Source: an uncultured Acidimicrobiia bacterium
Lineage (GTDB): Bacteria; Acidobacteriota; Terriglobia; Versatilivoradales; Versatilivoraceae
DNA: 64,000 nt
Assembly: GCA_963786955.1 (NCBI GenBank)
Contig: CAWBAT010000005.1
Location: 864,001 to 928,000 of the forward strand
Direction of reading: 5' to 3'
Every line of letters starts with the position of its first letter. Positions within the stretch are counted from its first letter, which is position 1. The translations under genes and the position numbers were made by a program. The notes under the pieces were generated by a model. That model did not search any database. It worked only from the letters and a program-made list of their open reading frames with translations, and was not told the origin of the DNA. Shown here one piece after another: positions 4,673 to 24,392 of this stretch.

Positions 4673-4675
4673 TAG
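3596..4675 (+). CDS. IS630-family DDE transposase
   Basis: N-terminal HTH (RPGR), VDEKSQIQAL, DYKRHGTTTL, IVDNYGTHK, TPTSSSWLNLVERWF; the stop codon uses the target TA. Confidence 0.95.
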   Translation: MRIAPMIFLSTEEHSILETWARSRSMPLRVVQRAQIIQMAAEGMQSQAIAQALRVSRPTVQLWRQRFLALRLEGLEKDAPRPGRFPKIPDPKIRAVIEATLHSKPPNATHWSTRTMAAAQGLSEATIRRVWKQHNLKPHLTKTFKLSRDKRFIEKLRDIVGLYLNPPDKSLVLCVDEKSQIQALDRTQPGLPLKKGRCGTLTHDYKRHGTTTLYAALSLLDGRVIGDCMPRHRHQEFIRFLKRIDCQTPDELNLHLIVDNYGTHKHPRVVSWLRRHPRFHLHFTPTSSSWLNLVERWFRNLTEKRIRRGSFASVPDLVAVIEDYLRKHNEKPQVFVWTATADQILAKVIKCKEALDALH

Positions 4676-7659: not shown

Positions 7660-8247
7660 TTAGGTCTTCAAAATGGCGATGGCTTCAATTTCAACTAAGA
7701 GATCCTCGCGACAGAGCCTCGCCTGGATGCCAGTGCTCGCTGGCAGGGGATCCAGCCCCAACCACCTGAAAAAAGCCGTTCGGACTTGGTTGAATTCCTT
7801 ATAATCCCGTTCAATATCTCGCAAATAGCAGCTGCAGCGCACGATATCCTTCCAGGTAGCCCCTTCGGATCTTAGCAACGTCGTAATATTGCGGTACGTT
7901 CTCCAGCATTGAGCCCGGAAGTCACCTGCATGAACCGTTCGGCCCAGCTCATCCACACTGGCTGTGCCGGAAATAAGCAACATGGAAAACCCGTTCAAAT
8001 CGACTCGCATGCCTCGTGTGAAGGAGGACGGGATAGGATAGTCGTAAGCCTCATTGAGTACGCTAGGCGCCTGTATTGCGCGTTTCGGCACCAGATCCGC
8101 TTCGGCTCGCCTTAGAGAAAGAGGAGGCGGTTGTAGTTCGCCCGTTGGAGAAAGGATACCGAGGGCGTTGAGTTCTTCCCGTTGCGCAGGGGAGAGTATT
8201 TCTGGGGCAAAGACGTCATCCACGACTTCCTTGATATTTTGAATCAT
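7660..8247 (-). CDS. Rid (YjgF/YER057c) family protein with chorismatase-like (FkbO/Hyg5) motifs
   Basis: SSFTRG, ISGTAS, TVHAGD..Q, YKEFNQVR, PASTGI, LCREDLLVEIE. Confidence 0.8.
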   Translation of the reverse strand: MIQNIKEVVDDVFAPEILSPAQREELNALGILSPTGELQPPPLSLRRAEADLVPKRAIQAPSVLNEAYDYPIPSSFTRGMRVDLNGFSMLLISGTASVDELGRTVHAGDFRAQCWRTYRNITTLLRSEGATWKDIVRCSCYLRDIERDYKEFNQVRTAFFRWLGLDPLPASTGIQARLCREDLLVEIEAIAILKT

Positions 8248-8410
8248 TGTGACACTCCTGATTGATAATTTAGAATGCAGTGACCGAGAATGATATTTCC
8301 TACTGCCTATGAAAAATGAAAAAGCCTGCGGATATTTAAAATGCGATGCTCGTAATTTCGATTGGTTAATAGGCCCTCATGACGATAAGTTTTTGGCTCC
8401 ATGTGCGGTT

Positions 8411-9301
8411 TCAGGCTAAGGCGGCCGAGGTTTTTCGCTCCATAAGATCCTCTTCTTCGGTCTTTCCCATTTTGTGAATCTTATTCATCAATTTCTGAAA
8501 GGTAGCCGGACGGATCGCCTGGTCGGGGTCGCATCGCAGCTGTGACCTGGGAGTGCGAGCACCCATGACCTCAATGAGCAGGCCATCCGCTCCAAACCCG
8601 AGAGCTGCTTGGGCGGCCCACGGCACCATGTCCGCACGGCCGGTAGCGTGACTCGGATCTACAATGACCGGGAGATAAGTGGCTTCACGAACCGCTTTGA
8701 CAACACTCAAATCCAAACAGAACCGGGAATACTCCCCTGCCCCGAAAGAACGGATTCCTCGCTCACACAGTACGATCTGCGTGTTCCCTTCCTTGGCGAT
8801 GTATTCAGCAGCGCAAAGCCATTCTTGCAGTGTTGCCGCCATGCCTCTCTTCAACAACACAGGCTTGCCGAGCTTTCCTAACTCCGTTAACAGTGGGAAA
8901 CACTGCATGTTGCGGGAACCTACTTGCAGCATATCCACATAGCGACCAACAAGCTCTACCAGCCTGACGTCGAGGACTTCTGTGACAACGGGCAACCCAG
9001 TTTGTTCCCGCACTGCAGCAAGGATTTTCAGTCCTTCTTCACCAAGCCCTTGAAAATCGTAAGGCGAGGTCCGTGGCTTGAAGGCGCCCCCACGCAGCAT
9101 CTGCGCCCCACAGCTCTTTACCTCCAAGGCGATTTCCAGAGTCTGTTCGAGACTTTCCACCGTACAAGGGCCGGCAATGACTGCGGGTTGGCGGCCTCCA
9201 AAAGCCACCCCGGCGACAGACACAACTTTGCTCGCAGTCCCTATGGAGTACTTGCAGTCCCCGTTGCGACTGACGATTCGGTAAGCATTATGATTAGCCA
9301 T
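8411..9301 (-). CDS. aroF: DAHP synthase type I-beta, no N-terminal regulatory domain
   Basis: [53 protein letters not shown]. Confidence 0.92.
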
Positions 9302-9408
9302 TTGCTTTTTAGCGCCCTATCCGAGTAGTACGTGCAGTTACTGGTTCTATTACTTACATCTTCGTAATCCAAGAAGTGTCACAGTAATGTCAACAAGACA
9401 CCGATCTA

Positions 9409-9437
9409 TTGACCAGGATGTAAATATTCTCTAGACT
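9409..9437 (+). promoter_or_regulatory. Sigma70-like promoter for the XRE regulator
   Basis: TTGACC-17 bp-TAGACT. Confidence 0.55.
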
Positions 9438-9599
9438 TGAGCAATATTGGAGGCATCGGAGGAGTTGTAGATTGGGACCCCGTTTAAGACCCTCGAAGTC
9501 TGACGAAGCAAGGATCAAAAGGGATGCAGAAGGATGCTCCGTAGGCAGCTCGACACCAATTGATCCGACTTGCTTTAATCGATAGGAGAGAAAAATACA

Positions 9600-10079
9600 A
9601 TGAGTTTTGGCAAGCAGATCCTAAGGCTACGAATTCAGTCAAAGAAAACCCAGCAGGAAATTTCCCAGTTGACAGGGTTGGCCGTTTCATATCTGTCTAG
9701 ATTAGAAAACAACCACGTGACTCCTTCCATTCGAACTCTCTCCAAGATCTCAAAAGCGTTGAGTGTGCCGACATCAGTCTTCTTCGATTCCGAACCGGTA
9801 CTGGAAGAAAGCGACCGCTGTCCTGTCAGTACCTCAGGACAGTGTATCCTCGATCAAATGTTGGTCGCTCGCGGACGAAAACCCAATGGACACGGGGAGG
9901 GTTATTCACCTCATCAGCTGGAAGTCCTTCGTCAATGCAATTTTTTGCTCCACGAAGGAGACCGAGAAATCGTCGCTTCTCTCTCTACGATGATTAAGTC
10001 TTTGCTCGCACTCTCGATCTCCAAGAGCCGGAAACATAAATCCCTCGGGGCAAAGTATTCGCCGACACAAGGAAGATAA
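9600..10079 (+). CDS. XRE-family HTH regulator with a Cys-containing C-terminal domain
   Basis: TQQEISQLTGLAVSYLSRLENNHVTPSI HTH; CPVSTSGQC; AGGAG RBS. Confidence 0.88.
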   Translation: MSFGKQILRLRIQSKKTQQEISQLTGLAVSYLSRLENNHVTPSIRTLSKISKALSVPTSVFFDSEPVLEESDRCPVSTSGQCILDQMLVARGRKPNGHGEGYSPHQLEVLRQCNFLLHEGDREIVASLSTMIKSLLALSISKSRKHKSLGAKYSPTQGR

Positions 10080-10460
10080 TGACAGAGGCGTATCATTGCT
10101 CAAGACGTAAGATGTCATCCTACGTTTTCCACCGCAAATACCTCGCACCCACCTTGACTCAGGGATTTGCAAAAATTGCGATTCTGCGATTTAGCTGCTG
10201 CGATTCTATCGCAGACCTCTTGTGATCCTCGATGGACCAGCTTAACGCGCCTATCAATCGAGACTGCCCGTTTGGTAATGCAGACGCGAGAAAAAGCGCA
10301 TCAACCGGCGTCTCAGAACTTTGCATCTCAACCTAAGAGTATCAATCTGGACTGGAGAATATTTCGCGACCGCTGCGTCAATTGAGCCAGTCCCTCCCTT
10401 CGGTATCTCGCACGATACATTAGTGTGACATTCAGAATTCAAACTGAAGGACTTAGCCAT

Positions 10461-10486
10461 GCATTCAGCGTGGCAATCTGAATGCT
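10461..10486 (+). promoter_or_regulatory. Inverted repeat overlapping a sigma54-like -24/-12 motif
   Basis: GCATTCAG-N9-CTGAATGC; contains TGGCAATCTGAATGCT (GG-N10-GC). Confidence 0.4.
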
Positions 10487-10597
10487 CATTAGGAATTCGA
10501 ATATTGGATTGAAGGGATTGGTGTGTTGAAGGACACGAAGAGATTGACCGGATCCTAGGGGGTCTTATGGTAGTGCCGGTCGTATACTAGAATTGGC

Positions 10598-10627
10598 GGC
10601 ATGAGTGGGCCAATATGCCCTTTTTTT
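10598..10627 (+). terminator. Possible weak terminator/attenuator hairpin in the operon leader
   Basis: GGCAT...ATGCC or GGGC...GCCC stem followed by T7. Confidence 0.35.
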
Positions 10628-10785
10628 ATGTCCACCTGTCGCGATCAAAGACGTCCACATCACCACCGATTGCTGGATTTCTTGATGGTTCTTCCACCGT
10701 ATAGGGGTCTGTCCAAATAACATTCTGGAACCTTTTCTCTTCGATCCTCAGCCTTCGGCCGAATTGCGTCAGGGGGCAATCTGCC

Positions 10786-12423
10786 ATGAAATCACAACTT
10801 TTGCTTGCCCTCGGTCTGGCATTCTGTGTCCTTTTGGCCGCAGGGACTTCCCAGCTTCCTGTCTATTTGGATGTCACCAAACAGGCCGGAATTGAATTTG
10901 ACCATTGCCTGGGCGCCAAGAAGATCAGCAACATTGTGGAGGCCACAGGGTCCGGCGCCGCATGGGTAGACTTTGACAAGGACGGGTGGCTGGACCTTTA
11001 TCTCGTCAACGGGTGTTACCTCGAAGGGGTCAGCGATCCGCGATCCCCATACAAAGGGAAAAAAATCACGGACCATTTGTACCGGAATAATGGGAATGGG
11101 ACCTTTTCCGATGTCACCGAGAAAGCCGGCCTCGGTGGCAAAGAGGATGGTTACGGGATGGCCGTTCAGGTCGGCGACTATGACAATGATGGATACCCGG
11201 ACTTGTATGTGACCAACTTTGGAGGCAATGTTCTCTATCACAACAATGGCAATGGTACTTTTACTGACGTGACCGAAAGAGCGGGAGTCGCTTGCAAGGG
11301 CCACTGGACCACGGGGGCAGCGTTCCTGGACTATGATAAGGACGGACTCTTGGACCTCTTTGTGGGAATCTATATCAAATTTGATGCCAGCTACCGACTC
11401 TACTATGAAGCCGACGTTTATCCCGGCCCGCTGGCGTATCCGGCGCAAAAGAGTTTTCTCTTCCACAACAATGGCAACGGAACTTTCACCGACGTCACCC
11501 AAAAAGCCAAAGTAGACAAGGAAGGCCGCGCAATGGGGGCTCTCACGGTTGACTACGATGACGATGGTTACCCCGATTTTTTTGTAGCCAACGACGCCAC
11601 CCCCAATCATCTCTTTCACAATGATCACGACGGAACATTTTCTGAAGTGGGCTTGCATGCAGCCGTCGCTTTCGGCCAAAACGGTAATGCGGCTGCTTCC
11701 ATGGGGGGAGACTGGGGCGATTTCGATCGGGATGGCCGGCTCGATCTGATCGTTCCAGCCATGAGTTACAACGCCCTCTACCGAAACCTGGGCAGGGGGC
11801 TCTTTGAAGATGTCGCCGTAGAAGCCGGGTTGGCCATCATCAGCGGCCAGTATTGGTCATGGGGAGGCAAATTCATTGATTACGACAATGACGGATACCT
11901 GGATGTCATGGTGGTCAATGGTGATGGGCACCGACTCACTGATACTCAGGAAGCCATTCTGGCGAGGAATGTAGCCGGCAGTGGCGGGAGTCGTGTCTTT
12001 CAAGATGTAGCCGCGGATTCAGGAGAATTCTTCCATCAAAAAATGGTCGCCCGAGGACTCGCGCTCGGTGACTATGACAATGATGGGGACATCGACGCCT
12101 TGATCTGTAATATCAACCAACCCGTGATTCTGCTTCGCAACGAGGGAGGGAACAGGAACAACTGGCTGCAGCTCAGCCTACAGGGTCGTAAAAGTAATCG
12201 CGATGCATTAGGTACCAAGGTGACCGTTAGAGCTGGAACCCTGCTGCAGTACGATGAAATGAAGAATGGCACGAGCTATCTTTCCGCCAACGACCCACGC
12301 ATGCACTTCGGCCTCGGGCAGGCCACGAAGGTAGACGAGGTAACCGTAAAATGGCCAAGTGGGGTGACCCAAAAATTCAAGGATGTGAAAATCAATCAAG
12401 TGCTCAAGTTCGTCGAACCCTAA
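10786..12423 (+). CDS. CRTAC1-like FG-GAP/VCBS repeat protein with ASPIC/UnbV domain, secreted
   Basis: Signal peptide; about 7 D[YF]DxDGxxD repeats; C-terminal SYLSANDPRMHFGLG...VKWPSG. Confidence 0.92.
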   Translation: MKSQLLLALGLAFCVLLAAGTSQLPVYLDVTKQAGIEFDHCLGAKKISNIVEATGSGAAWVDFDKDGWLDLYLVNGCYLEGVSDPRSPYKGKKITDHLYRNNGNGTFSDVTEKAGLGGKEDGYGMAVQVGDYDNDGYPDLYVTNFGGNVLYHNNGNGTFTDVTERAGVACKGHWTTGAAFLDYDKDGLLDLFVGIYIKFDASYRLYYEADVYPGPLAYPAQKSFLFHNNGNGTFTDVTQKAKVDKEGRAMGALTVDYDDDGYPDFFVANDATPNHLFHNDHDGTFSEVGLHAAVAFGQNGNAAASMGGDWGDFDRDGRLDLIVPAMSYNALYRNLGRGLFEDVAVEAGLAIISGQYWSWGGKFIDYDNDGYLDVMVVNGDGHRLTDTQEAILARNVAGSGGSRVFQDVAADSGEFFHQKMVARGLALGDYDNDGDIDALICNINQPVILLRNEGGNRNNWLQLSLQGRKSNRDALGTKVTVRAGTLLQYDEMKNGTSYLSANDPRMHFGLGQATKVDEVTVKWPSGVTQKFKDVKINQVLKFVEP

Positions 12424-13916
12424 AGATTGTGCTGTCGGTCGTTCTTGGGTCGGGCCTCTTGTTTTTTCAGGCGTTGCGTTCAGCGGTTTCTGAACCGCAA
12501 CGTTTCCCTTTGATCTTTACCCAGTTCGCTCATCGGACCGGAGTATCGACTCCTTCCAATCACCCCTTTCAAGGGCAGCTCTCACGCCCCGAGGGCAGTC
12601 GCTTGGTATTGATGTCATCCTCCGGCAAGCTCAAAGTTCTCACCCCTGAATTGGCGGCAGCCGCAGAAGCTTCGATTTCCTTCGACGGCAAGAAGGTGTT
12701 GTTTTCCGGGAAACGACTTGCTCAGGACAACTGGGACATCTGGGAAATGGAAGTGGATGGGCAGAACAAACATCAGATTACCCACCAGCTTAAAGACTGC
12801 GGAGAACCTCATTATCTGGCCATGAGCGCTCTCAATTATCCCGAATATGACGAAAAGGTCCGTTGGATCACATTTACCTCGACCGCCGCAGGGACCTACG
12901 AAGAATGGGGACCCGCCCTGGCTACGTCCCTCTATGTGCAGAATCTTGATCCCATCATGGGGCGCGGGGTTGTCACTTGGCGAATTACTTTCAATCTGTC
13001 GAGCGATTTTTCTCCCACTGTTCTCCATGATGGGCGAACCCTCTTTACCAGCCATCAGATGGGGGACCGCAAACAAAATTCAGTGGGTCGCTTTCTGTTG
13101 CTGGCTTCCAATTGGGACGGCACCGGATTGAACCTGTTTTGCGGGGATGAGCAGGGTCATCGCATGAAGACCATGGCGTGCGAGATGCCCGACCGGACAT
13201 TGGTTTTCGTGGATTCCGATGGGAATACACCGGATGGCAGCGGGGAGTTAGCTCGCGTCTCATTTCGTCGCCCTTTGCACAGCTATGAGCCACTCAGCAA
13301 AGGAGAGGGGCGCTATCGTAATCCCCAAAGTCTGCCCGACGGTTCTCTGCTTGTTTCCTACGCCACGGGAGAAAATGCCTACGGGCTCTACTTTTTCGAT
13401 TTCGACAAGAAGTGCCCGGGCCGGAAAATTTTTGGTGATTCGAAGTGGGAAGCTGTCCAAGCAGTTCCTGTGTTGCCCACCGTTGAGCCGACAGGCTTGA
13501 TCAGTGCTGTTTATGACGAGCAGACTGCCGGAGACCTGCAGTGCCTGAACGTTTATGATTCTGACCGACCCGAGGCGTCTGACATCCGAAAAGGGGAGGT
13601 GAAACAAGTCCGCTTGGTCCAAGGGATTCCATCCCTGACAGCTTCCTCATCCCCGGAAACGCGTATCCTGGGGGAAGCCCCGGTGGAATCGGATGGTTCT
13701 TTTTTTGTGCGGGTTCCGGCTGACATCCCGTTTTACATCCAAACCCTAAACGCCCAAGGGCAGCCACTACAGACGATGCACCGATGGATATGGGTCCGCA
13801 AGGGGACGAGCCGAAGCTGCATCGGCTGCCATGAGGATAAGGAACTGGCTCCCGAAAACAGGATCACCGAGGCACTTCTCAAGGCGAAGCCCCATCCGGT
13901 GGGGTTAAAGCGTTGA
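12351..13916 (+). CDS. Hydrazine-synthase-alpha-like protein (TolB/PD40 propeller, middle domain, one CxxCH)
   Basis: SFDGKKVLFS..WDIWEM, RITFNLSSDFSPTVLHDGR, LGEAPVESDGSFFVRVPADIPFYIQTL, SCIGCHE (13818-13832); the true start may be GTG 12429. Confidence 0.78.
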   Translation: MAKWGDPKIQGCENQSSAQVRRTLKIVLSVVLGSGLLFFQALRSAVSEPQRFPLIFTQFAHRTGVSTPSNHPFQGQLSRPEGSRLVLMSSSGKLKVLTPELAAAAEASISFDGKKVLFSGKRLAQDNWDIWEMEVDGQNKHQITHQLKDCGEPHYLAMSALNYPEYDEKVRWITFTSTAAGTYEEWGPALATSLYVQNLDPIMGRGVVTWRITFNLSSDFSPTVLHDGRTLFTSHQMGDRKQNSVGRFLLLASNWDGTGLNLFCGDEQGHRMKTMACEMPDRTLVFVDSDGNTPDGSGELARVSFRRPLHSYEPLSKGEGRYRNPQSLPDGSLLVSYATGENAYGLYFFDFDKKCPGRKIFGDSKWEAVQAVPVLPTVEPTGLISAVYDEQTAGDLQCLNVYDSDRPEASDIRKGEVKQVRLVQGIPSLTASSSPETRILGEAPVESDGSFFVRVPADIPFYIQTLNAQGQPLQTMHRWIWVRKGTSRSCIGCHEDKELAPENRITEALLKAKPHPVGLKR

Positions 13917-13992
13917 GTTGGAGGATTTGGAGAGCAATGTTGCTGCTTGTCAAGAGAGAACAGATTTTCAGTAAGGGTGGAGGAGTAATTCA

Positions 13993-16548
13993 TTGGCAGC
14001 TCACAAAATGCAGAACCTGGCCGTGATTGCAGGCATCCTCGTTCTGCTCACTTCACTCAGCTTGTCCATGAACTCTGGGCAGTGCGCCTTGGATGGCGGC
14101 AAGCGCAGCCTGTACGCCGTGCCTGAAGATGATCAATATAAATCGCCGATTCAATTGGCCATAAGTAAAGATGGGCAGCGTCTTTTTGTCGCTTGCGAAA
14201 ACAGTAACGAAGTCCTTGTGATCGATATCCGGCAGAACCGGGTTATTCAAAACATCAAGGTGGGGAAACACCCCTTCGGCGTGACGCTCGATCCTGACGA
14301 GAAGAAACTCTATGTCAGCAACCGATGGGATAATTCCTTGACCGTGATTAGCCTGACTTTGCTCGTTGCGGAAAAGACAGTTCCCATCGGGAATGACCCT
14401 CATCAAATGCGGACCGATGCCTCCGGGAAAGTCCTATACGTCAGTAATCTGACCACTCGTGATATCTCGGTGGTGGACACAGCCACGATGCAGGAGACTA
14501 AACGACTGGATGCAGGAGTCTCGCCCTTCGGTATCAGCTTGTCTCCTGACGGAAAATTTCTCTATGCCACCAATCAGTTGTCGAGCCCCGTACCTTTCCG
14601 TAGCGCTCCAGTAACGGAGCTGACGATCGTGGATACAGCCAGCCAGCTCGTAACGGGACGACTGCGGCTGGTATCCACCGTCATTGCCCAGGATGTGGCA
14701 GTCACTCCAGACAGCCAGTTTGCCGTGATCGCCGTCGAAATGCCCAAGAATCTGCTGCCTGAGACTCAGATTTATCAGGGCTGGATGGTCACCCATGGTT
14801 TCGCAATAGCGGAAGCGGGGCCCCGTGGCCGGCTGGCCTACTTCCTGCTTGACGAACCGAATCTTTATTATGCTGATGCTTACGGAGTGGCCATCTCGCC
14901 GGATGGACATCGTCTTTACATCTCATCGAGCGGCGTGGATGTGATTTCCGTCGTCAATCTGGACAAAATTTATGAGCTGCTCAAAGTCAAAGACGGCAAG
15001 ATTGGAATCCCCGATGAAACCATTAAGCTGTATGCCCGGCATCTGGCGCTAAGTTCCGAGTATGTTCAAGCAAGGATTCCAACTGGCAGTAATCCCAAGG
15101 ATATCATCCTCTCCCCGGATGGGAGCCGTCTCTACGTAGCCAACCGTCTATCCGACACTATCCTCATTGTGGACACCAAGTCGAATAAGCCGGCCGGGAC
15201 CATTGAACTGGGTGGCCCTCGTCTGGAGACCGAGCTTCGCAAGGGAGAGAAGCTTTTCAATTACAGCAGCATCAGCTTTCAGAAACAGTTGAGCTGCAAC
15301 ACGTGCCACCCCGAGTATCATCTGGACGGGTTGACCTATGACATTGTCGCGCCAAGCGATCCCATCGGGCAAAACCTGGTCGACAACCGGACGATGCGCG
15401 GTATCGCCTACACCGGCCCCTTTAAGTGGAATGGGAAAAACCCCTCTTTAGCGCGGCAAGATGGGCCTCGCGCAGCTCAATTGTTCTTCAGGTCGCATGG
15501 CTTCGATCCCACTCAGTTGCAGCAAATCGTCAAGTTTGTCGAATCGCTGGGTATCCATCCCAGCCGCTTTCTAGCAGCCGCCGGCACCTTTACCGATCAA
15601 CAGGACGAAGGAAGGATTCTATTTGAGAGGGCGTTTGTCAGATCAGGCCCTCTGGCGGGACGGTATATTCCAGTCGGCAATCGTTGTATCAGTTGCCACC
15701 AGCCTCCCTTCTATACAGACCATGATGTGCACAACGTCGGGACCCAATCCTATACCGATGCCGAGGATGTAGTTGACACTCCGCAGCTCAGCAATGTGTA
15801 TGAAAACGCTCCATTCCTGCATGATGGACGTTGTTACAGTCTGGAAGAAATCTGGACCGTCCACAACCCGGATGACATGCATGGAGCCACCAATGGTTCC
15901 ATGGACAAGCGTGAGTTAAATTCTCTGATTGAATTCTTGAAAACCTTGTCGGCCCGTGAGCCTATGCCCGACAAGGAATTCCTGGAAACCACTTTCCCGA
16001 AGGGGACAGAGAAATCGAATCCATTTTATGTGGAGGGTCTGGTCAATCCGGTCAAACCTGATCTGCGATACCTGGGCAACAAAGCCTGTGCCGAATGCCA
16101 TGTGAAGGAGTACAAGGCCTGGCTTGGCAGTGGACATGCCCGGACCTGGGTCATGCTTGGCTCACGAAATGCCACATTGGTTGGCCAGCAACTGGGTATC
16201 AAGAACTCAAACCTTCAATACAACGTCAAGTGTCTGATGTGCCATGGAACAGCTGCCGATGTCGTCACAGATTCCCGGGCCGCTAATTTCCACATCGAGG
16301 AAGGGGTGAAATGCGAGTCTTGCCACGGCCCCGGCGAAGAGCACACATTGTTTATGAAGCAGAATCCCAAGGGGCCCATGGGAAAATTGAAAATGCCAAC
16401 CCCTGAAGATTGCCTAGTCTGTCATAGGCCGAAGCCTTCCCATGCCCAGCTGAAAAAGGACCCCTTCGATCTCGACACTGACATGAAGAAGATCTCGCAT
16501 TGGAAAGAAAAAATAGCGCCGCGATCTGCTCATGGATCGGGCATGTAG
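13993..16548 (+). CDS. YVTN/YncE beta-propeller + di-heme CcP/MauG-like + tetraheme c554-like fusion (6 CxxCH)
   Basis: Signal peptide; SPDGxxLYV repeats; CNTCH 15295, CISCH 15685 (DTPQL..PFLHDGR), CAECH 16087, CLMCH 16231, CESCHGPG 16312, CLVCH 16411. Confidence 0.88.
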   Translation: MAAHKMQNLAVIAGILVLLTSLSLSMNSGQCALDGGKRSLYAVPEDDQYKSPIQLAISKDGQRLFVACENSNEVLVIDIRQNRVIQNIKVGKHPFGVTLDPDEKKLYVSNRWDNSLTVISLTLLVAEKTVPIGNDPHQMRTDASGKVLYVSNLTTRDISVVDTATMQETKRLDAGVSPFGISLSPDGKFLYATNQLSSPVPFRSAPVTELTIVDTASQLVTGRLRLVSTVIAQDVAVTPDSQFAVIAVEMPKNLLPETQIYQGWMVTHGFAIAEAGPRGRLAYFLLDEPNLYYADAYGVAISPDGHRLYISSSGVDVISVVNLDKIYELLKVKDGKIGIPDETIKLYARHLALSSEYVQARIPTGSNPKDIILSPDGSRLYVANRLSDTILIVDTKSNKPAGTIELGGPRLETELRKGEKLFNYSSISFQKQLSCNTCHPEYHLDGLTYDIVAPSDPIGQNLVDNRTMRGIAYTGPFKWNGKNPSLARQDGPRAAQLFFRSHGFDPTQLQQIVKFVESLGIHPSRFLAAAGTFTDQQDEGRILFERAFVRSGPLAGRYIPVGNRCISCHQPPFYTDHDVHNVGTQSYTDAEDVVDTPQLSNVYENAPFLHDGRCYSLEEIWTVHNPDDMHGATNGSMDKRELNSLIEFLKTLSAREPMPDKEFLETTFPKGTEKSNPFYVEGLVNPVKPDLRYLGNKACAECHVKEYKAWLGSGHARTWVMLGSRNATLVGQQLGIKNSNLQYNVKCLMCHGTAADVVTDSRAANFHIEEGVKCESCHGPGEEHTLFMKQNPKGPMGKLKMPTPEDCLVCHRPKPSHAQLKKDPFDLDTDMKKISHWKEKIAPRSAHGSGM

Positions 16549-16652
16549 TCCTTATGCTTCTCATGAGTCTCTATCCTCGGGAGAAGAGGGGACGGTTTTT
16601 ACATCACCGGAAGTAGTTTCTAAATTCTTATTGTTTTCGCTTGGAGGCAATA

Positions 16653-17840
16653 ATGAAAAGCAGGACACGAGTCATATTAATTTCCTTGTTTTGGCTGATC
16701 TCTTCTTTTGGCATTTTGGGGATGCCACCGTCCAATACGGCTGAGCAAGCCCCCGCTAGAGCTGAAAAGGAAGAATGGCCTCGGGTCTACACAGAGTGGC
16801 AATCTTTCCACAGCGAGGATGGTCTTCCTTCCAACAAAGTTTATGCTGTCGCCGTGGATGGTGATCGCGTCTGGTTTGGAACTGATAACGGTTTGGCTTT
16901 GTATGAACAGGGAAAATGGACCACATTTGGCGTTGAGGATGGTTTGGCCTATCCCGCCGTTCTCTGCCTGGCGGTCGATCCGGTTACTCGCGACCTGTGG
17001 GCCGGGACGATGAAAGGATTGTCGCATTTCTCCGCAGGTAAATTCGAAAGCTTCACCCAATTCAACAGCGGACTCCCCAACGATGTGGTGTTTGGGGTTT
17101 GCGTGGAAAACCAGAACGTCTGGATCGCTACGACGGCCGGCACCGCTCGCTTTCATACGCACGAGAAGACCTGGGATGTTTATACACCCGCCAATTCCCC
17201 GCAACATGAGCCCTGGGGCTATTTCGTCACTTACGCAGACGGAAAGGTTTATGCCGCTCTTTGGGGTGGCGGAGTATTGGAATTCGATATCGCAACCCAG
17301 GGATGGAAGGCCTGGCGGGATCCGGACGGCGAGATGGAAGTGGATGTATTTCGAGATGATGGACTCATCCACGTGATTACGACTAGCGTCAGCTACGTGG
17401 AGAAGATTCTCTGGGTGTCTACTTATTTTGGCATGAGCCGCTATGACGGCCGTCATTGGCGGGGATATATTGAAGGTGATTCAGGATTGCCCAGCAATTT
17501 CATCAATATGGTCAAAGCCCGAAATAATGTCGCCTGGGTTTGCACGGATCGTGGCTTGGGCACCGTCAATGGCGATACGAACCGCTGGGTGAGCTACGCC
17601 CCTGTTGATCCGCTCTGGGCAAAGCAAAAAAGTCCCGCAGGGGTTCAAGACCCGATCGAGGGAAACCAAGGTTGGGAAGCAAAGATCTTTAATGACAGCA
17701 AGCTCATTAAAACGGTGAAACTGGAACACGGACTTGCCAACAATCACATCTATGGCGTCGATTTTCAGGGAGAGGATATCTGGGTAGCGACCTCCAAGGG
17801 AGTAAGTCATGCCACTTGGAGAGAAGGAGGTGCTCAGTGA
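16653..17840 (+). CDS. Secreted beta-propeller (two-component-regulator propeller/ligand-binding repeats)
   Basis: GLPSNKV/GLPNDVV/GLPSNFI/GLANNHI...VWxxTxxG repeats; signal peptide; GGAGG RBS before ATG 16653. Confidence 0.82.
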   Translation: MKSRTRVILISLFWLISSFGILGMPPSNTAEQAPARAEKEEWPRVYTEWQSFHSEDGLPSNKVYAVAVDGDRVWFGTDNGLALYEQGKWTTFGVEDGLAYPAVLCLAVDPVTRDLWAGTMKGLSHFSAGKFESFTQFNSGLPNDVVFGVCVENQNVWIATTAGTARFHTHEKTWDVYTPANSPQHEPWGYFVTYADGKVYAALWGGGVLEFDIATQGWKAWRDPDGEMEVDVFRDDGLIHVITTSVSYVEKILWVSTYFGMSRYDGRHWRGYIEGDSGLPSNFINMVKARNNVAWVCTDRGLGTVNGDTNRWVSYAPVDPLWAKQKSPAGVQDPIEGNQGWEAKIFNDSKLIKTVKLEHGLANNHIYGVDFQGEDIWVATSKGVSHATWREGGAQ

Positions 17841-19223
17841 AATCGAAGATCTTGTTCAGCTGGTTCGGTATTGATGGCAGTCATGATTATTGCAGGCCTC
17901 ATTCCGGTTGCCGAAGAAAAAAAATTGCCTTCAAGCGATACTGGAACTGCCGGGAACGCGGCAACCGCTTCCTCCTCGGCCGAACAGTCCCCGGAGCCCA
18001 AGAAAAAGGAACTCTATGGCAACATGCCGGAAGATCTTGAGCCATTTGGCAAATTTGTGAAAGAGCCCTACAAGAAATATTTCGTGCCCAGTGATGCAGC
18101 GATCACTTTTTGGGGACCCGGGCGCGAAAAATCCGAACCTGAAGTGGATACTGTAAAGATTGGGTTGCTGGCCCCGGTAGAGCGTAGCCACGAAACTTAT
18201 ATGGGCCGCTCGATATTGAACGGAATGACCCTTGCGCTTGAAGAAGCCAACGCCGCAGGAGGATATAAAGGAAAGCCATTTGAGGCCGTGGTGAAAAACG
18301 ACTCCGGTTTGTGGGGGGCCTCCGCCAATGAAATCATCAACTTTACTTACGAAGAAAAAGTCTGGGCTGTCATTGGTACTGTGGATGGGGCCAACAGCCA
18401 CATTGCCATTCGTGTGGCTCTGCGCACCGATATCCCGATGATGAACGTGGCTGACCTTGACCCGACCTTGATGGAAACGCGCATCCCCTGGGTTTTTCGC
18501 AATGTCCAGGACGACCGGCAAATGGCCTACACGATTGCCTATTACGTCTACAAACAGTTGGGGTTTAACAAAGTGGCCATTCTGCGCGCCAATAATCGCT
18601 ACGGCCGTTTTGGTGTGGCCCAATTTCGAAAAGCCTCCATCCGGCTGAGCAAACCTGCCCCGATCGAAGTCAATTATGAGATCAACTACGATCAGGTCAA
18701 CCTGGATTTCATCACTCAGATGAGTCGTCTCAAAGAAGCAAATCCGGACGGAATTATCCTCTGGGCGGACCCTGTACCGGCAGGCCTACTCGTAAAGAAG
18801 ATTCGGGAAATGGGAATGAGCATTCCCGTCGTTGCCTGCGAACGGATCCTCAACCCTGCTTTCATCAGGGAAGCCGGGCCAGCCGCCGAAGGGGTGGTGG
18901 CTACGTCGCCATTCAATTCTGAGTCCGGAGAGTCCGAAGTTCGTCGAATTCAAGAAGAAGTACAAGGCACACTTCGCAGCGACCCTGATATGTATGCGGC
19001 TTATTCTTATGATGGAACTAACATGGTCATTGCTGCCATCCATAAAGCCGGCTTGAATCGATATCGCATCCGTGACGAAATGACGTTGCAGCAAGATTGG
19101 GAAGGAGTCACTGGAATCTGCCATTATGACGATGTGTTCACGAATCGTTCACCCGTCACCGTGGCCACCGTAAAAAATGGCAAATGGGTCTATGGCATCC
19201 CCAAATTGGAGCATGTCTTTTGA
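17837..19223 (+). CDS. Type I periplasmic solute-binding protein (LivJ/Peripla_BP_6-like); apparent indels
   Basis: VKIGLLAP, LALEEANAAGG, WAVIG, AAYSYDG. GTG 17837 after AGGAGG is out of frame by one base near 17865; a compensating indel pair lies at about 18925-18980. Confidence 0.82.
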
Positions 19224-19225
19224 TC

Positions 19226-20448
19226 ATGAACAGTTTGTATTCCACATTGGTATGTCTGCTCGTATTGGCGGCCGCGCCGCAGGCACCTTATCTCGATTTT
19301 TCACATGCTGGGGCTGGGTTCTATGGAAGCGGCAGGGAAATCCCAGAACCGATAGACCTCACTTCAGTCAGGATCGGGGTGCTGGGGCCCGAAACGAGTC
19401 CCGAGGGGAGGCAGATGCGGTCCGCTATCCAAATGGCTATCGATGAAGCCAATGCGCGCGGCGGTTACGGGTTAAAAGTCCAGCTCCTTAGAGCATCTCC
19501 ATATGGCGAAAAATCTCCCTGTTCCGAGGAGGCTCGGGTGATTCCGTACGAAATGGTTTTTCGCCCCGACGATGGCCCCTGGGGGACAGCCACCAGCCAG
19601 GTTGTCAAATTCGCCTATGAAGACAGGGTCTGGACGATCATCGGTGGACTCGATGGCCAACGAACACATATCGCCGAATTGGTCGTGACTAAAGCCTGGG
19701 TACCGGTTATCAGCCCCGGGACGACCGATTCCACTGTTGACTACGCCAACGTCCCCTGGGTTTTCCGGGCCGTCCCCGCCGACAGCCGACAGGCCGACGC
19801 TTTGCTGGCCTTTGCCAACAAACAAGGCTATAGCCGACTGGTCGTCCTGTCTGAAATAGAAAGAGAATCCTATGCCAGTTTCAAGCGATTGAGTGAAAGT
19901 GCGCGGCATGGGCATACTACATTTGCGATGCATTTGGATTATCCGCCGGAAAATCCGGTGGCCGTCATTCCTCAACTGCAGGGTATTTCGTTCGATGCCG
20001 CCGTGATTTGGGGAAGGGGAGAGACCGCCATGCCGCTCATCGAAGGGTTGCGCCGAGCCGGCATTCAGGTACCCATCCTGGCTTGTTCGGCATTGGCTAC
20101 GCCGGAAGTGGCAAAGAAACAGCCTGTGTTGGGAAATCTGACAGTCGTGGCCCCGTATGATTTAAGCCGTCACGATTTTGAGCTGGAGAACTTCCAGCGA
20201 CGATATGAATCTCAAACCGGAACCCGGGCAGGGCCGCTGGCGGTTTATTCTTATGATGTGGCTCGGCTCGTCATCGGTGCCATAGAAAAGCAGGGCTCAA
20301 TCGAGCACTCATTCGAGATGAGCTGGCGGGAACTAGGTTTAACGGCCTCGCAGGACCTTATCGGTTCAGTTGCTTGGGAGGCAATGAGGCTGATCCCGTG
20401 CTGATGACACTTCAAGAAAACGGTTGGAGCCGAATTCAGGGCTTCTAA
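19226..20448 (+). CDS. Second LivJ-like solute-binding protein (paralog); frameshift near 20288
   Basis: VRIGVLGP, AIDEANARGG, PWVFRAVP, YSYD; adding one A restores EKAGLNRALIRDEL (paralog HKAGLNRYRIRDEM) to TAA 20446-20448. Confidence 0.8.
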
Positions 20449-20585
20449 ATCCTGCGAAAGCGCCATTTGTCCTCAGGCTAAAAACCAACAGAAACTCCCC
20501 CCAGTAGCCACTTAAGACAAACTTAGCCTGACTCTTCACTCAGCCGAGATTCATTCTCTTTTAAATGGAAGCGGGTACTAGTGGC

Positions 20586-21368
20586 TTAGTGGAGGACCTT
20601 TCCTGTGCGAGACCAACGGGTCTTGGATATGAAGTGAGCCACTACCGATGCATACTCCTGCACGTACTCGGTAATCGACTTTGGACGAGGATCATACGGA
20701 GGCGCTTCATACGACCAATAAATAAAGAGTGGTTTGCCAATGATATTCTTCCCATTGACTACGCCCCAGTATCGACTGTCATTACTATTATCTCGGTTGT
20801 CTCCCATCATGAAATAGCTGTCCGGGGGTATCGCGATCGGGCCGAAGTTATCTCTGACAATATAATCGTCAGGAATACCTGAATCGCGTTCGTAGATCTT
20901 CGAGTCGATAAAGTGTTTGTAGGACTCCTTTAGCTCCGCCCCGTTGATGTAGACCCTTTTGTCTCGAATCTCCAATGTTTCGCCGGGTAATCCAATGACT
21001 CTTTTGATGAACGGAATTTTCGGGTTCTCCGGGGATTTGAATGCCACGATTTCTCCTCGACCGATCGTTCGGGTCGGCAAAATTCTGAGGAGCATTTCCG
21101 GGTAATTTGCAGGGAACGCAAACTTATCCAGGAAAAAATGATCGCCCACCAGAATCGTTGGCTTCATGGATTCCGTGGGAACTTGCGTGGCTTGGGCGAT
21201 GAAATTCGTGAAGAAGAAAACAAAAATTAAGCTAAACACCAGACTTTCCAGCCACTCTCGCGCGGCGCTCTTCCCACGCGGTGGGGATGGCAGAGTCTGG
21301 TTGAGATCTGAGTCGGGATCCAAATTTTGAGTTGGCACTAAATCTTCTTTATTCCTTCTAAGAAACAT
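20586..21368 (-). CDS. lepB: Signal peptidase I
   Basis: VPTESMKPT (Ser), FIKRVIGLPGE (Lys), MGDNRDNSNDSRYWG. Confidence 0.95.
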   Translation of the reverse strand: MFLRRNKEDLVPTQNLDPDSDLNQTLPSPPRGKSAAREWLESLVFSLIFVFFFTNFIAQATQVPTESMKPTILVGDHFFLDKFAFPANYPEMLLRILPTRTIGRGEIVAFKSPENPKIPFIKRVIGLPGETLEIRDKRVYINGAELKESYKHFIDSKIYERDSGIPDDYIVRDNFGPIAIPPDSYFMMGDNRDNSNDSRYWGVVNGKNIIGKPLFIYWSYEAPPYDPRPKSITEYVQEYASVVAHFISKTRWSRTGKVLH

Positions 21369-21762
21369 ATTTACTCCAAGTCCGCAATGGCCGCCACTGC
21401 TCCATTAAGATCTTTTCACCTGGGGAAGTTTCATGCCCAGCCCGATAATTCTAGCATGGTCGTGCAAGATTAGGGAACAGACAGCACGGTTGCACGGGGA
21501 AATAATGTTTTGATTCAAGAGACTTCCCTAAGCAGCCGCTATCCAGTAGCGCTTGGATCGGTTTCGACATCTCAAGCTCTCAAGACTCCTCCATTTCATC
21601 AATTTAATCACTTATTTTCAATCTGTTTGGCAGTCCAATAATGGATCGCGCGTATGGGCTTCCGCTCCCGAGGCGCTCCAGCGTGTGTCGACTCACTCGG
21701 TCCATCTCTCCGCCGGCAGCTCGAAGTTGCATGAATGGAATGATGAAAGGGAGTCCTTAGCA

Positions 21763-22261
21763 TCAAGCTTCATGACATGAGCCGGATCCGACATTCTTTA
21801 ACAAGGTAGAGATCGTATTGCGGAAGGTCGGATGGAGGAGGTCTGGCGCTAGGGTCACCAACGGTTCAAGGACAAAACGACGCAAATGCATGCGCGGATG
21901 GGGGATCTGAACCTCTGGTAAATTCAGGATGATCTGATCATAAAGCAGGACATCGATATCAATCAGGCGCGGACCCCGGGGAATCCGTCGTTCCCTTCCC
22001 AATTCGGATTCTACCTCTAGACAGAAATCGAGCAACTCTTCTGGCCCTGCATGAGCCCCTACCTGCAAGACCTGATTGAGAAACCAATCCTGGTCCTTCA
22101 TAATCCACCGGTTCCGTGTGATACAGGACGGAAGCTTTTTTAATTGGAGTCCCTTTAAGGAAGAGTTTTTCGCGGGCGCGTTTCAGGTTTTCTGCCTTAT
22201 CCCCCAGGTTAGAGCCAAGAGAGAGGAATGCTTGATGTGGAGAAACAAGGACATCACTCAT
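21763..22261 (-). CDS. folK: HPPK; split by a +1 frameshift near 22098
   Basis: LSLGSNLGD...TEPVDY then QDWFLNQV...GPRLIDIDVLLY...PHPRMHLRRFVLEPL in two frames. Confidence 0.9.
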
Positions 22262-22275
22262 CGACTCATCCCTCT

Positions 22276-23300
22276 CTAGAGCAAATGTAATTGTCCGGGA
22301 GGAACTGGCATTCCGAAGTGTTCGTAAGCAAGACGAGTAGCCACGCGACCACGAGGGGTACGATGGAGGTAGCCTTTCTGAATTAGGAAAGGTTCATACA
22401 TGTCTTCGATGGCCTCGACCTCTTCACTGATTGCTGCCGCGATGGTGTTGATCCCCACAGGTCCGCCCGGAATACTTTCTCGATAATGACTTTGAGCAGC
22501 TTTTTGTCCATCTCCTCAAAACCATTATCGTCAATGGACAACATGGCAAGGCAATCCTCGGCGACAGCCCGGGTCACCACCCCATTGGCCTTGACTTGCG
22601 CATAGTCCCGGACTCGTCGAAGAAGCCGATTGGCAATACGCGGCGTGCCGCGAGAACGCCGCGCAATTTCCGCGGCCCCGTCTGGATCGATTTGAATGTC
22701 TAAGATCTCCGCTGACCGTTTAATAATGATGGCAAGATCATCTTCCCCGTAAAAATCCAGCCGATGGACAATGCCGAATCGGGATCGAAGAGGCGCCGTG
22801 ATCGAACCAGCCCGCGTGGTGGCGCCGATCAAGGTAAACTTGGGAATCTCGATAGGATGACTGCGGGCGCTCGGTCCCTGGCCGATGATCAGGTCGAGTT
22901 TGAAATCTTCCATAGCCGGGTAGAGAATTTCTTCGATTTGCGGCTGCAATCGATGGATTTCATCGATAAAGAGAACATCTTGTTCCTTGAGATTGGTGAG
23001 AATCGCAGAGAGGTCTCCCTTGATTTGGATGACTGGACCTGAAGTCGTCTTCAAGCCAACATTCAGTTCATTCGCAATGACACTGGCCAGGGTAGTTTTG
23101 CCCAAGCCCGGCGGGCCATAAAGCAACACATGATCCATGGCTTCCTGGCGAGTTCGGGCGGCGGCAATCGAGATGGCAAGGTTCTCTTTGATTTGCTGTT
23201 GCCCAATGTATTCTCTTAAGAATCTAGGCCGCAGGCTAAGCTCAAAGGTTTGTTCATCCTCAAAACCCCTGCCAGAAACAATCCGTTGTTCTTCGTTCAT
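22276..23300 (-). CDS. ruvB: Holliday junction helicase RuvB; frameshift near 22470
   Basis: [36 protein letters not shown]; C-terminal GPVG..YEPFL..RTPRGR in another frame. Confidence 0.95.
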
Positions 23301-23328
23301 GCGGACCTTATCACCCTACAAAGACTGA

Positions 23329-23931
23329 TCAGCGAGAAAGGTGTTGCAAGACACCTTTCAGCAGGCGTTCAAACCCCTGTTCCGCGCCGTTTGACGAGAG
23401 TACCTTTTGAAGGGCCCTCTCGGCCATGTTCTTAGGATAACCGAGATTGACGAGCGCCGATACAACATCGTCCTGGGCCTGTGACAAAGGGGCCCCTTCG
23501 GCAGTGACGGTCGTTGATAATACTTCGAATTTCGCTAGTTTATCTCGGAGTTCGAGCACAAGCCGTTCTGCCGTTTTTTTACCAACTCCCGGGATAGAGG
23601 TCAATTTGGCCAGGTTCCCTTCCCGAATGGCAGGAATGAGTTCCTCAGAAGGCATCCCCGATAGGATCGTGATACCAAGCTTCGGCCCGATTCCAGATAC
23701 AGAAATCAATTGTTCAAAGAGTGATTTTTCTCGGACCGTCTTGAAGCCAAACAACGCAAGGTTGTCTTCGCGAACATGGGTATAGACTTGGAGCTGGACA
23801 GGACCCCCAGTTTCTCCTGTCTCGTAAAAAGTGGAAAGAGGGATAGTGACCTCATAGCCGACACCGTTCACGTCGACAATCAGTTGATTGGGTTGCTTGC
23901 TGAGAAGTCTACCGGACAAGTAGGCAATCAT
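23329..23931 (-). CDS. ruvA: Holliday junction branch migration protein RuvA
   Basis: MIAYLSG..DVNGVGYEV, VSGIGPK, IPGVGKKTAERL, ALVNLGY. Confidence 0.95.
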   Translation of the reverse strand: MIAYLSGRLLSKQPNQLIVDVNGVGYEVTIPLSTFYETGETGGPVQLQVYTHVREDNLALFGFKTVREKSLFEQLISVSGIGPKLGITILSGMPSEELIPAIREGNLAKLTSIPGVGKKTAERLVLELRDKLAKFEVLSTTVTAEGAPLSQAQDDVVSALVNLGYPKNMAERALQKVLSSNGAEQGFERLLKGVLQHLSR

Positions 23932-24037
23932 GGAGAGGAAAAGGGTACAGTCCAGGAAACAGCCAGATTCTGTGGCTGGAACGACATGGCGAGTCAGCCC
24001 AATCGAAGGGACGGCCAAATCCATTGGCCAGGCGAAA

Positions 24038-24310
24038 TCAGGTTGTCATCTCGATCGAGTCGATGACGCCAATGACCGCCATATCGATTGGAGTAAAAGG
24101 CTTTCCCACGGAAGTCATGGCTGACCAGCCTTCCTGAGTCAGCAGAACCCGGTCACCAACACCGGCGTCAACAGCATCCACAGCCAGAACGGGTGTTCCT
24201 CGCTCCGTCCCATCCAGATTAAGAATTTGGACGTACAGGATCTTCTGGCCCTCGTGGCTGGAATGTTTCCGCGTCGCGACGATGTTGCCAATGACTTTTC
24301 CGATGAGCAT
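24038..24310 (-). CDS. BMC-P pentamer shell protein (EutN/CcmL)
   Basis: MLIGKVIGNIVATRKH..AVDAVDAGVGDRVL..IDMAVIGVID. Confidence 0.92.
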   Translation of the reverse strand: MLIGKVIGNIVATRKHSSHEGQKILYVQILNLDGTERGTPVLAVDAVDAGVGDRVLLTQEGWSAMTSVGKPFTPIDMAVIGVIDSIEMTT

Positions 24311-24392
24311 GATCAATTCGCCTGGAAACCGCCTCCGCAGGTGGGGAGCTAGCCAGAACATCTGCGTGCCCCATTTAAGGATGGATCCCGCG

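Follow-up and report, generated by a model that had tools for sequence, protein, structure and literature searches.

Hydrazine synthase homologues in a conserved, predicted periplasmic haem gene cluster of a non-anammox acidobacterium

Hydrazine synthase (HZS), the enzyme of bacteria performing anaerobic ammonium oxidation (anammox), consists of alpha, beta and gamma subunits; its haem alphaI has Tyr591 as proximal ligand, four residues past the CxxCH histidine, its zinc site is formed by alphaHis587 and alphaCys303, and its alphaII haem sits in a C-terminal bis-His domain; haem gammaI has a third covalent link, through gammaCys165, and gammaHis144 and gammaAsp168 are further defining residues. 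The beta and gamma subunits are fused in Scalindua. Here we analyze a cluster of six genes related to this enzyme, found in a stretch of 64,000 nucleotides (hereafter the window; positions 864,001 to 928,000 of contig CAWBAT010000005.1, assembly GCA_963786955.1) from an uncultured acidobacterium. The current view of the HZS haems is set out in PMC12607021, and the core idea that HZS-like clusters occur outside anammox bacteria is already published (PMC12758564, PMC10732223, PMC11828985). For example, ‘hzs-like’ genes are described in Phycisphaerae in passages of PMC10732223 that suggest a broader enzyme family, and the part of PMC11828985 dealing with such genes reads them as anammox potential in ten phyla, including Acidobacteriota (n = 10). 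The main text of PMC12758564 (Hagglund et al. 2025, Genome Biol Evol) describes non-anammox alpha-like genes that adjoin fused beta-gamma-like genes, divides them into clades I-IV, and reports clusters with a CRTAC1 FG-GAP gene and two binding-protein genes, with the FG-GAP gene upstream and the binding proteins downstream in clade III (its section 7). It also reports that two residues are missing at alphaSer590/Tyr591, that clades II and III have lost alphaII, that Trp occupies the gammaHis144 position, that clade I retains gammaCys165, and that the beta-gamma proteins have extra haem motifs, i.e., eight or four N-terminal motifs in clade I, none in clade II and one in clade III. Opitutus terrae, Paludibaculum fermentans and Syntrophobacter fumaroxidans are among the cultured carriers that it names. 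That main text concludes that these proteins are not hydrazine synthases and proposes no function for them.

Judged by its sequence, the window holds a variant, in domain order, of this published cluster type. As in the clusters described in the main text of PMC12758564, an alpha-like gene adjoins a fused beta-gamma-like gene, the CRTAC1-type FG-GAP gene and both downstream binding-protein genes (SBP1 and SBP2) follow the order given for clade III, and the proteins show the two-residue gap at Ser590/Tyr591, the loss of alphaII (as in clades II and III) and the Trp at gammaHis144. Unlike the forms described there, the beta-gamma protein of the window carries a tetrahaem cytochrome c554-type domain at its C-terminus. 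The same main text makes no mention of a Reg_prop propeller gene, of the fusion of this gene to binding proteins, or of DAHP synthase and Rid-like neighbours; what our analysis adds is the co-occurrence counts, the Reg_prop/binding-protein fusions together with a complex model, the DAHP synthase and Rid-like neighbours, and the grouping of the window clade with HzsA in the alpha tree. We consider it likely that the six genes are an HZS-homologue cluster of non-anammox bacteria, comprising a substrate-capture subcomplex and a multi-haem core that is catalytically altered and does not make hydrazine. The initial annotation had seen an alpha plus fused beta-gamma architecture in a non-anammox context, and had suggested an uncharacterised haem enzyme complex; the architecture is borne out by sequence and fold homology to HzsA, HzsB and HzsC (NCBIfam, PDB 5c2v, Foldseek), and the suggestion of a complex is supported, with the residues that define HZS replaced and the genes kept together.

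The alpha-like gene is, by all the profile and structure matches we obtained, a homologue of HZS-alpha. Its product, made up of a TolB-type six-bladed propeller and a haem middle domain with no alphaII domain, matches the HZS_alpha middle domain of Pfam (PF18582; 4e-22, 79 bits against a cut-off of 26.6) and scores 193.6 bits against the NCBIfam equivalog for HZS alpha (NF052339, cut-off 800), and its sole significant match among solved structures is 5c2v_A (3.8e-47). The AlphaFold model of the protein (predicted local distance difference test, pLDDT, 69.9) has 5c2v_D as its top Foldseek match (E 1.7e-28, TMq 0.76), followed by TolB at 1e-8. The absence of an alphaII domain follows from the position of the single CxxCH, about 25 residues before the end of the protein; longer alpha-like relatives (P0012, P0019) retain a second CxxCH. 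Alignment of 22 family members demonstrated that C464, G466, C467, H468, E469, E472, A474, P475, E476 and N477 are invariant in 22/22 sequences, i.e., the CIGCH motif is followed by an invariant E..E.APEN. In the HzsA references, taken from the hzs genes of two anammox genomes that served as our alignment references, the haem motif continues as CHDGSY, with Tyr at His+4, as against CHE[DN]KELAPEN in the window protein and 21 relatives (CHEDKE in the window). MAFFT places a 2-residue gap at Ser590/Tyr591 in the window protein, and read without the gap, His+4 is an invariant Glu. At the alphaCys303 position the MAFFT column holds Glu, and HMMER pairs the Cys of NLFCGDEQG in the window protein with chain residue 276 of 5c2v_A, which corresponds to alphaCys303; this Cys is not invariant across the alpha-like family.

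The gene that follows, 77 nt downstream, is on similar grounds a homologue of the fused HZS-beta-gamma, extended by a tetrahaem c554-type domain. Its product scores 168.2 bits against the NCBIfam beta equivalog NF052340 (cut-off 560), 56.5 against the gamma equivalog NF052341 (cut-off 625) and 163.3 against the beta-gamma equivalog NF052342 (cut-off 1250), and it matches 5c2v_B (1.4e-40) and 5c2v_C (5.1e-13) in the PDB. The propeller, recognized by Pfam as a YVTN/lactonase propeller and modelled at pLDDT >90, has 5c2v_B as its best Foldseek match (E 3.3e-29, TMt 0.90, root-mean-square deviation 3.0 over 358 columns). The di-haem domain matches CCP_MauG (PF03150; 9.4e-9, 36.5 bits against 25.6) and contains the haem motifs CNTCH (15295-15309) and CISCH (15685-15699), and the C-terminal part matches Cytochrome_C554 (1.4e-13) and PDB 1bvb (3.5e-4), and is presumed to be an electron wire. 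Of the six CxxCH motifs of the fusion, the di-haem part contains two and the C-terminal part four; the alpha-like protein has one (CIGCH). Alignment with two HzsC sequences from anammox bacteria places Trp479 at gammaHis144, Asp490 at gammaCys165 and Ala at gammaAsp168; W479 is invariant in 27/27 sequences, and the equivalent of gammaCys165 is retained in the Planctomycetota and Verrucomicrobiota forms, unlike in the window. As in di-haem cytochrome c peroxidases (CCP) and MauG, which belong to the same PF03150 family, the window domain has two CxxCH motifs in the same positions and a conserved inter-haem Trp. Unlike these enzymes, it forms one chain with a propeller and a tetrahaem domain and is paired with a second haem protein, and its PF03150 match is modest; scores against the MauG and MbnH equivalogs are far below their cut-offs. 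The c554 part varies between groups: the window-like Acidobacteriota forms have it at the C-terminus with four haems, the Latescibacterota and Gemmatimonadota forms encode it separately, the Planctomycetota and Verrucomicrobiota forms carry it at the N-terminus (four or eight haems), and the Bacteroidota forms have one extra CxxCH.

Compared with the anammox enzyme itself (Kuenenia stuttgartiensis, PDB 5C2V, EC 1.7.2.7), the window proteins agree in subunit folds and domain order, and their beta and gamma parts are fused as they are in Scalindua. They differ from it in having neither the Tyr591 ligand nor the alphaII haem domain, in having Asp for gammaCys165, Trp for gammaHis144 and Ala for gammaAsp168, in the added tetrahaem domain, in an alpha gene that precedes beta-gamma, and in their predicted export to the periplasm of a non-anammox organism without HAO/HDH. 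The difference is also one of scale, since true HzsA proteins, which occur in 14 of the 301 Planctomycetota genomes searched, reach 1518 bits or more with the alpha equivalog, a gap of >1300 bits to the 193.6 of the window protein, and the NCBIfam HZS equivalog scores of the window proteins are 4-11 times below the curated cut-offs. A search of the source genome (93.3% complete) for the HAO family (PF13447) gave 0 matches, against 14 in an anammox control genome (G201), and neither HAO nor NrfA is present among the 17 multihaem open reading frames (ORFs) of the source genome that were scanned. The search for nirK, NrfA and the hybrid-cluster protein (Hcp, TIGR01703) in this genome found none over cut-offs (nirK 26.6 bits against 296), and a match to cytochrome d1 is weak only. 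Because the Tyr ligand of alphaI, the alphaII domain, the gammaCys165 link, gammaHis144 and gammaAsp168 are replaced or missing, and because there is no HAO-type enzyme, we conclude that this is not a hydrazine synthase, and that hydrazine synthesis by the window complex is very unlikely; this agrees with the initial annotation, which had not claimed it. The organism was also described there as a probable non-anammox acidobacterium; its assignment to the acidobacteria is supported by the sole alpha-like genes at 57-64% identity among the matches listed, which are from Acidobacteriota or Terriglobia loci, and by orthologues in genomes of the same family.

The cluster is conserved well beyond these nearest relatives. 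A single-protein query found only 2 related loci, and an alignment query was used for a pattern scan of species-representative genomes; this search identified at least 551 alpha-like relatives in these genomes, with at least 11 phylum-level groups named among the records of the matches listed. Grouped at 50% identity, the family comprises 770 clusters that score E<=1e-30. Our neighbourhood counts cover 81 loci. A beta/gamma-like gene lies next to the alpha-like gene in 65 of these, and of the other 16, 15 have <4.5 kb of downstream sequence and one has room, so that the genes are conserved together in 65/66 informative loci. A CRTAC1-like gene is syntenic in 52 of the 65 loci with both alpha and beta-gamma (the 13 without it are mostly from Phycisphaerae or at contig ends), the Reg_prop gene is missing from just 6 of the 65, and every part tested, i.e., also the CRTAC1-like, Reg_prop and binding-protein genes, is present in 41/65, with most of the others cut by contig ends. 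Five groups (W, which contains the window, Bact, PV, Phy and X) are each recovered as monophyletic whether the tree is built from alpha, beta or gamma sequences, which fits co-inheritance of the alpha-like and beta-gamma-like genes. By architecture, group PV is similar to clade I, Bact to clade III and Phy to clade IV, and group W mixes clade-II-like and clade-III-like gene orders. The alpha tree places the HzsA sequences of anammox bacteria and group W on one side of a branch with a support of 100/97, and a quick tree agrees; the beta tree puts anammox HzsB, on a very long branch, at a three-way fork that it does not resolve, and the anammox and window clades branch together at just 54/78 in the gamma tree, so the sister relation of the anammox sequences and group W is that of the alpha tree alone. 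The anammox rows were flagged for odd composition in these trees.

Within its own lineage, the cluster is distributed unevenly. Orthologues are present in four genomes of the same family (G003, G011, G012, G017), and of two genomes of the same genus, one (G001) has only a divergent paralogue and the other (G002) has none. An alpha-like gene (E<=1e-40) occurs in 13 of the 401 genomes of an even phylum sample that includes the source genome, with just one of them close; from these counts and the gaps within the genus we regard the cluster as a patchy accessory trait. One of the same-family genomes (G003) contains two full copies of the cluster (L008, L009) on different contigs and a third, more distant alpha-like gene. 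A single locus of the 81 (L016, an uncultured bacterium, 17.8 kb) has an alpha-like gene with two CxxCH motifs and >9 kb of downstream sequence without a beta-gamma-like, CRTAC1-like or binding-protein gene. Large extra proteins with TPR, FG-GAP and ASPIC domains flank the cluster in several phyla (L015:17839-21306, L066:18627-21149, L080:18679-21300, L042:2238-9538, L048:2613-9727), and at four other related loci (L037, L039, L041, L072) the flanks hold genes for glycoside hydrolases (GH95, GH3, GH127, GH38).

Detailed examination of the three downstream genes showed that they encode a propeller and two binding proteins that may work together. The Reg_prop protein matches Reg_prop in Pfam (5.5e-14) and the sensor propeller 4a2l in the PDB (1.4e-18); SBP1 matches Peripla_BP_6 (4.1e-38) and PDB 4gnr (4.7e-23), with further matches to aromatic-acid binders such as 4evq, and SBP2 matches Peripla_BP_6 (6.2e-24), with a second binding protein syntenic in related loci. 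In 10 of the 81 loci examined, the Reg_prop and binding-protein genes are one ORF, and Pfam found Reg_prop together with one or two Peripla_BP_6 domains in 4/4 of the fused ORFs tested. A complex model of Reg_prop with SBP1, built from purpose-built alignments, reached an ipSAE of 0.86 (best of 3 controls 0.00), a value attained by 58/80 solved complexes and by 2/110 mismatched pairs; separate runs share at least 64% of contacts, the pLDDT of the partner is at least 79, and the modelled interface contains eight family-invariant residues per side, among them W192, Y194, W208 and D303 of Reg_prop and W148, H177 and R181 of SBP1. Reg_prop is thus a predicted binding partner of SBP1. No solved Reg_prop/SBP complex is known to us, although no search aimed at one was made. 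No permease or ATPase gene is present around the cluster at 7660-24000 of the window, and none was found among the 40 of 88 flanking ORFs that were scanned at 14 related loci. The lack of these genes nearby, the Reg_prop fusions and the complex model together make the binding proteins look like parts of a machine and not of an importer. The first two of these observations, made in the window and at the fused loci, speak against a Leu/Ile/Val-type ATP-binding cassette (ABC) importer locus.

Two genes upstream of the cluster, encoded on the opposite strand, suggest a possible link to chorismate. The first encodes a DAHP synthase (NF006421, 376 bits against a cut-off of 335; TIGR01361, 341 against 268), and as the genome contains three DAHP_synth_1 genes, we class it as an extra copy. 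The second encodes a Rid-like protein which matches Ribonuc_L-PSP in Pfam (1.2e-16), and TIGR00004 (4e-13) and the chorismatase family TIGR04444 (2e-9) each below cut-off, so that its profile matches relate it distantly to RidA as well as to the FkbO/Hyg5 chorismatases. A DAHP synthase gene lies beside or inside the cluster in 17/81 loci (10/32 informative) and a Rid-like gene, searched by tblastn, in 27/81 (18/32 informative); this recurrence extends to other phyla, and in Bacteroidota loci both genes lie between the Reg_prop and binding-protein genes, the DAHP synthase gene being placed between the two genes for binding proteins. Two control neighbours from the window, an HTH_3 regulator and a signal peptidase, recur in 0/81 loci. 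On these counts we reject the reading of the chorismate genes as mere housekeeping neighbours; the counts support the link to adjacent chorismate genes which had been raised as a possibility; the two genes hint at a chorismate-derived aromatic substrate or cofactor. The gene for the HTH_3 (XRE-type) regulator (9600-10079, + strand) separates the haem operon from the divergent DAHP synthase/Rid pair. Its absence from all 81 related loci makes it a possible local regulator of the window copy.

Coordinates of all these features are collected in the table below.

Features of the haem gene cluster and its upstream neighbours (positions in the window)
Feature	Position	Strand	Basis
CRTAC1-like FG-GAP/ASPIC-UnbV propeller protein, 545 aa	10786..12423	+	Pfam; signal-like N-terminus
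HZS-alpha-like protein, 495 aa from 12429	12429..13916	+	Pfam, NCBIfam, PDB, Foldseek
Haem-c motif CIGCH of the alpha-like protein	13818..13832	+	Motif and family alignment
HZS-beta-gamma-like fusion with C-terminal tetrahaem domain, 851 aa, signal-like N-terminus	13993..16548	+	NCBIfam, PDB
Seven-bladed YVTN propeller, HzsB-like, residues about 45-405 of the beta-gamma fusion	14125..15207	+	Foldseek
CCP/MauG-type di-haem domain, HzsC-like, residues about 406-665 of the beta-gamma fusion	15208..15987	+	Pfam, alignment
Tetrahaem cytochrome c554-type domain (CAECH, CLMCH, CESCH, CLVCH)	16060..16548	+	Pfam, PDB
Reg_prop beta-propeller protein, 399 aa, signal-like N-terminus	16641..17840	+	Pfam, PDB
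SBP1, type-I periplasmic binding protein (Leu/Ile/Val / aromatic-acid family), 450 aa	17871..19223	+	Pfam, PDB
SBP2, second type-I binding protein, 406 aa	19184..20404	+	Pfam
DAHP synthase, type I-beta, 296 aa	8411..9301	-	NCBIfam
Rid/YjgF-fold protein, 195 aa, N-terminus not signal-like	7660..8247	-	Pfam, NCBIfam, tblastn

The six ORFs of the cluster span 10786-20404, all on the + strand with short gaps or overlaps, and re-checking their coordinates in the window confirmed the initial description of six co-oriented, mostly tightly coupled genes, as did Pfam for their domain make-up (CRTAC1/ASPIC, propellers, haem domains and two binding proteins); for example, the CRTAC1-like protein matches FG-GAP_3 (1.3e-52) and UnbV_ASPIC (2e-24). 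Export-like N-terminal signals, which had been ascribed to all six proteins, are plausible by eye in five, and the N-terminus of SBP1 as called is weak. The alpha-like gene was called from 12351, with candidate starts at 12351, 12408 and 12429, and probably begins at 12429 (or 12408) rather than at 12351; likewise, SBP2 probably begins at an internal ATG at 19226 rather than at 19184. A promoter and terminator scan of 9500-21000 gave counts at chance level (7 against 8.2 expected, and 15 against 12.5), and we therefore leave transcription units unclaimed.

The source genome contains 24 ORFs with four or more CxxCH motifs and many MtrC- and c7-type multihaem cytochromes, a richness that suggests extracellular electron transfer. 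Among the encoded proteins are MtrC/MtrF-like decahaems and one with 19 haems and a cytochrome b561-type part (C4:838059-840893; C5:655564-658737; C3:190742-196077). Near-identical DNA is present in sediment metagenomes, where 20 runs from 18 studies hold part of the stretch (best share 0.52). Contigs of two RNA libraries (X19, X20) map to parts of several cluster genes, with two X20 contigs matching without differences inside the alpha-like gene (12451-12601 and 13598-13845). Elsewhere in the window, a DDE_3 transposase gene with HTH domains (3596-4675, + strand) marks a probable insertion sequence some 3 kb away from the conserved neighbourhood, and recJ is present as two adjacent ORFs (41441-43131, - strand; DHH in 42202-43131, DHHA1 and RecJ_OB in 41441-42193), which could reflect a frameshift, a misassembly or a gene that is genuinely split. 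A gene for an EutN/CcmL microcompartment vertex protein (24038-24361, - strand) has as a near neighbour a class II aldolase ORF (25734-26312, - strand) whose match spans only the first half of the aldolase profile; we read this as a possible remnant, or as a possible part, of a microcompartment locus.

Based on these findings, we propose that the alpha-like and beta-gamma-like proteins would assemble in the fashion of HZS into an exported multi-haem complex. Electrons would pass from the tetrahaem wire to the gammaII-like haem and would then reach the gammaI-like haem through the invariant Trp, a route like that of peroxidases and MauG; the gammaI-like haem would turn over a small oxidant (H2O2- or NO-like), and the alpha-like haem would handle a second substrate. 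Natural fusions and the complex model suggest that Reg_prop and the binding proteins would be a substrate-capture subcomplex, not an ABC importer, and the CRTAC1-like protein would be a further conserved subunit. The DAHP synthase paralogue and the Rid/chorismatase-like gene (7660-9301) would belong to the same conserved neighbourhood, with a substrate or cofactor that is possibly a chorismate-derived aromatic. Several observations weigh against this proposal. HMMER and MAFFT disagree over the match of the window Cys to alphaCys303 and the ungapped His+4 is an invariant Glu, both of which bear on the ligation of the alpha-like haem; the model of the di-haem and c554 parts has a pLDDT of 30-60, and because of this low confidence the electron path is drawn from homology alone; the sign of transcription is weak and comes from the RNA-library contigs only; and with a DAHP synthase gene in just 10/32 and a Rid-like gene in just 18/32 informative loci, the chorismate-linked genes are not obligatory.

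A more ambitious version of this proposal, which we offer as speculation and think unlikely to be right as a whole, is that the cluster encodes a new extracytoplasmic haem system. Its subcomplex would capture a chorismate-derived aromatic or amino-acid-like molecule, supplied by the DAHP synthase paralogue and the chorismatase-like enzyme, and would pass it to an HZS-type core with two haem sites, where oxidative coupling or N-O/N-N/C-N chemistry would take place. On this view, HZS alpha would also have no closer living relative than the window clade (the Acidobacteriota, Latescibacterota, KSB1 and Gemmatimonadota type).

Other readings of the same genes fare less well. The membership of the gamma-like domain in the CCP/MauG family, its inter-haem Trp, which the main text of PMC12758564 gives as typical of CCP and MauG, and the presence of several conserved partners with no catalytic motif of their own would all fit a MauG-like maturation machine, in which the di-haem domain would draw on H2O2 or O2 for the oxidation of residues in a partner (the CRTAC1-like, alpha-like or Reg_prop/SBP protein), so that the modified partner, with its protein-derived cofactor, would be the true catalyst. 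We hold this to be improbable, since an invariant haem site in the alpha-like protein would be needless in a mere substrate, the fused tetrahaem wire suggests steady electron flow and not a one-time event, and no target motif was identified. It is a little less probable again that the di-haem protein is an ordinary periplasmic peroxidase that detoxifies peroxide or NO, with the propeller and binding proteins unrelated to it and the latter feeding an amino-acid ABC importer encoded elsewhere: a CCP_MauG domain with an electron-wire cytochrome is what such an enzyme would have, and SBP1 resembles Leu/Ile/Val binding proteins, but the whole gene set is syntenic across phyla, with every part tested in 41/65 loci, Reg_prop and binding proteins are fused in 10 loci and modelled as binding, and neither the window cluster nor the flanking ORFs scanned at the related loci have a permease or ATPase beside them. 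Finally, a genuine but divergent hydrazine synthase in a cryptic anammox host, as the relevant part of PMC11828985 would read it, is hardly credible despite three adjacent HZS subunit folds, the 100/97 grouping with HzsA and a possible Cys at alphaCys303, given equivalog scores 4-11 times under cut-off and >1300 bits short of true HzsA, the loss of Tyr591, the alphaII domain and gammaCys165, the Trp for gammaHis144, a 93.3%-complete genome without an HAO/HDH family gene or any nirK, NrfA or Hcp over cut-offs, and the same conclusion in the main text of PMC12758564.

If the six genes are, as we favour, a catalytically altered HZS-homologue cluster, then those of the window should not count as anammox genes. 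HzsA-like genes have already been counted as anammox markers, and PMC11828985, in the part dealing with them, extends anammox to ten phyla including Acidobacteriota; the window is a concrete failure of this marker reading, with catalytic residues replaced and no hydrazine-oxidising enzyme in the genome. From the number of sequence clusters and of phylum-level groups over which the alpha-like genes are spread, this would be one of the larger periplasmic haem systems of sediment and soil bacteria still to be characterised, and the predicted Reg_prop/binding-protein subcomplex and the recurrent DAHP synthase and chorismatase-like genes are entry points to its substrate. The grouping of the window clade with the HzsA of anammox bacteria, strong in the alpha tree only, bears on the origin of HZS, and if it is true, the window clade would offer the best model for the evolutionary precursor of anammox chemistry.

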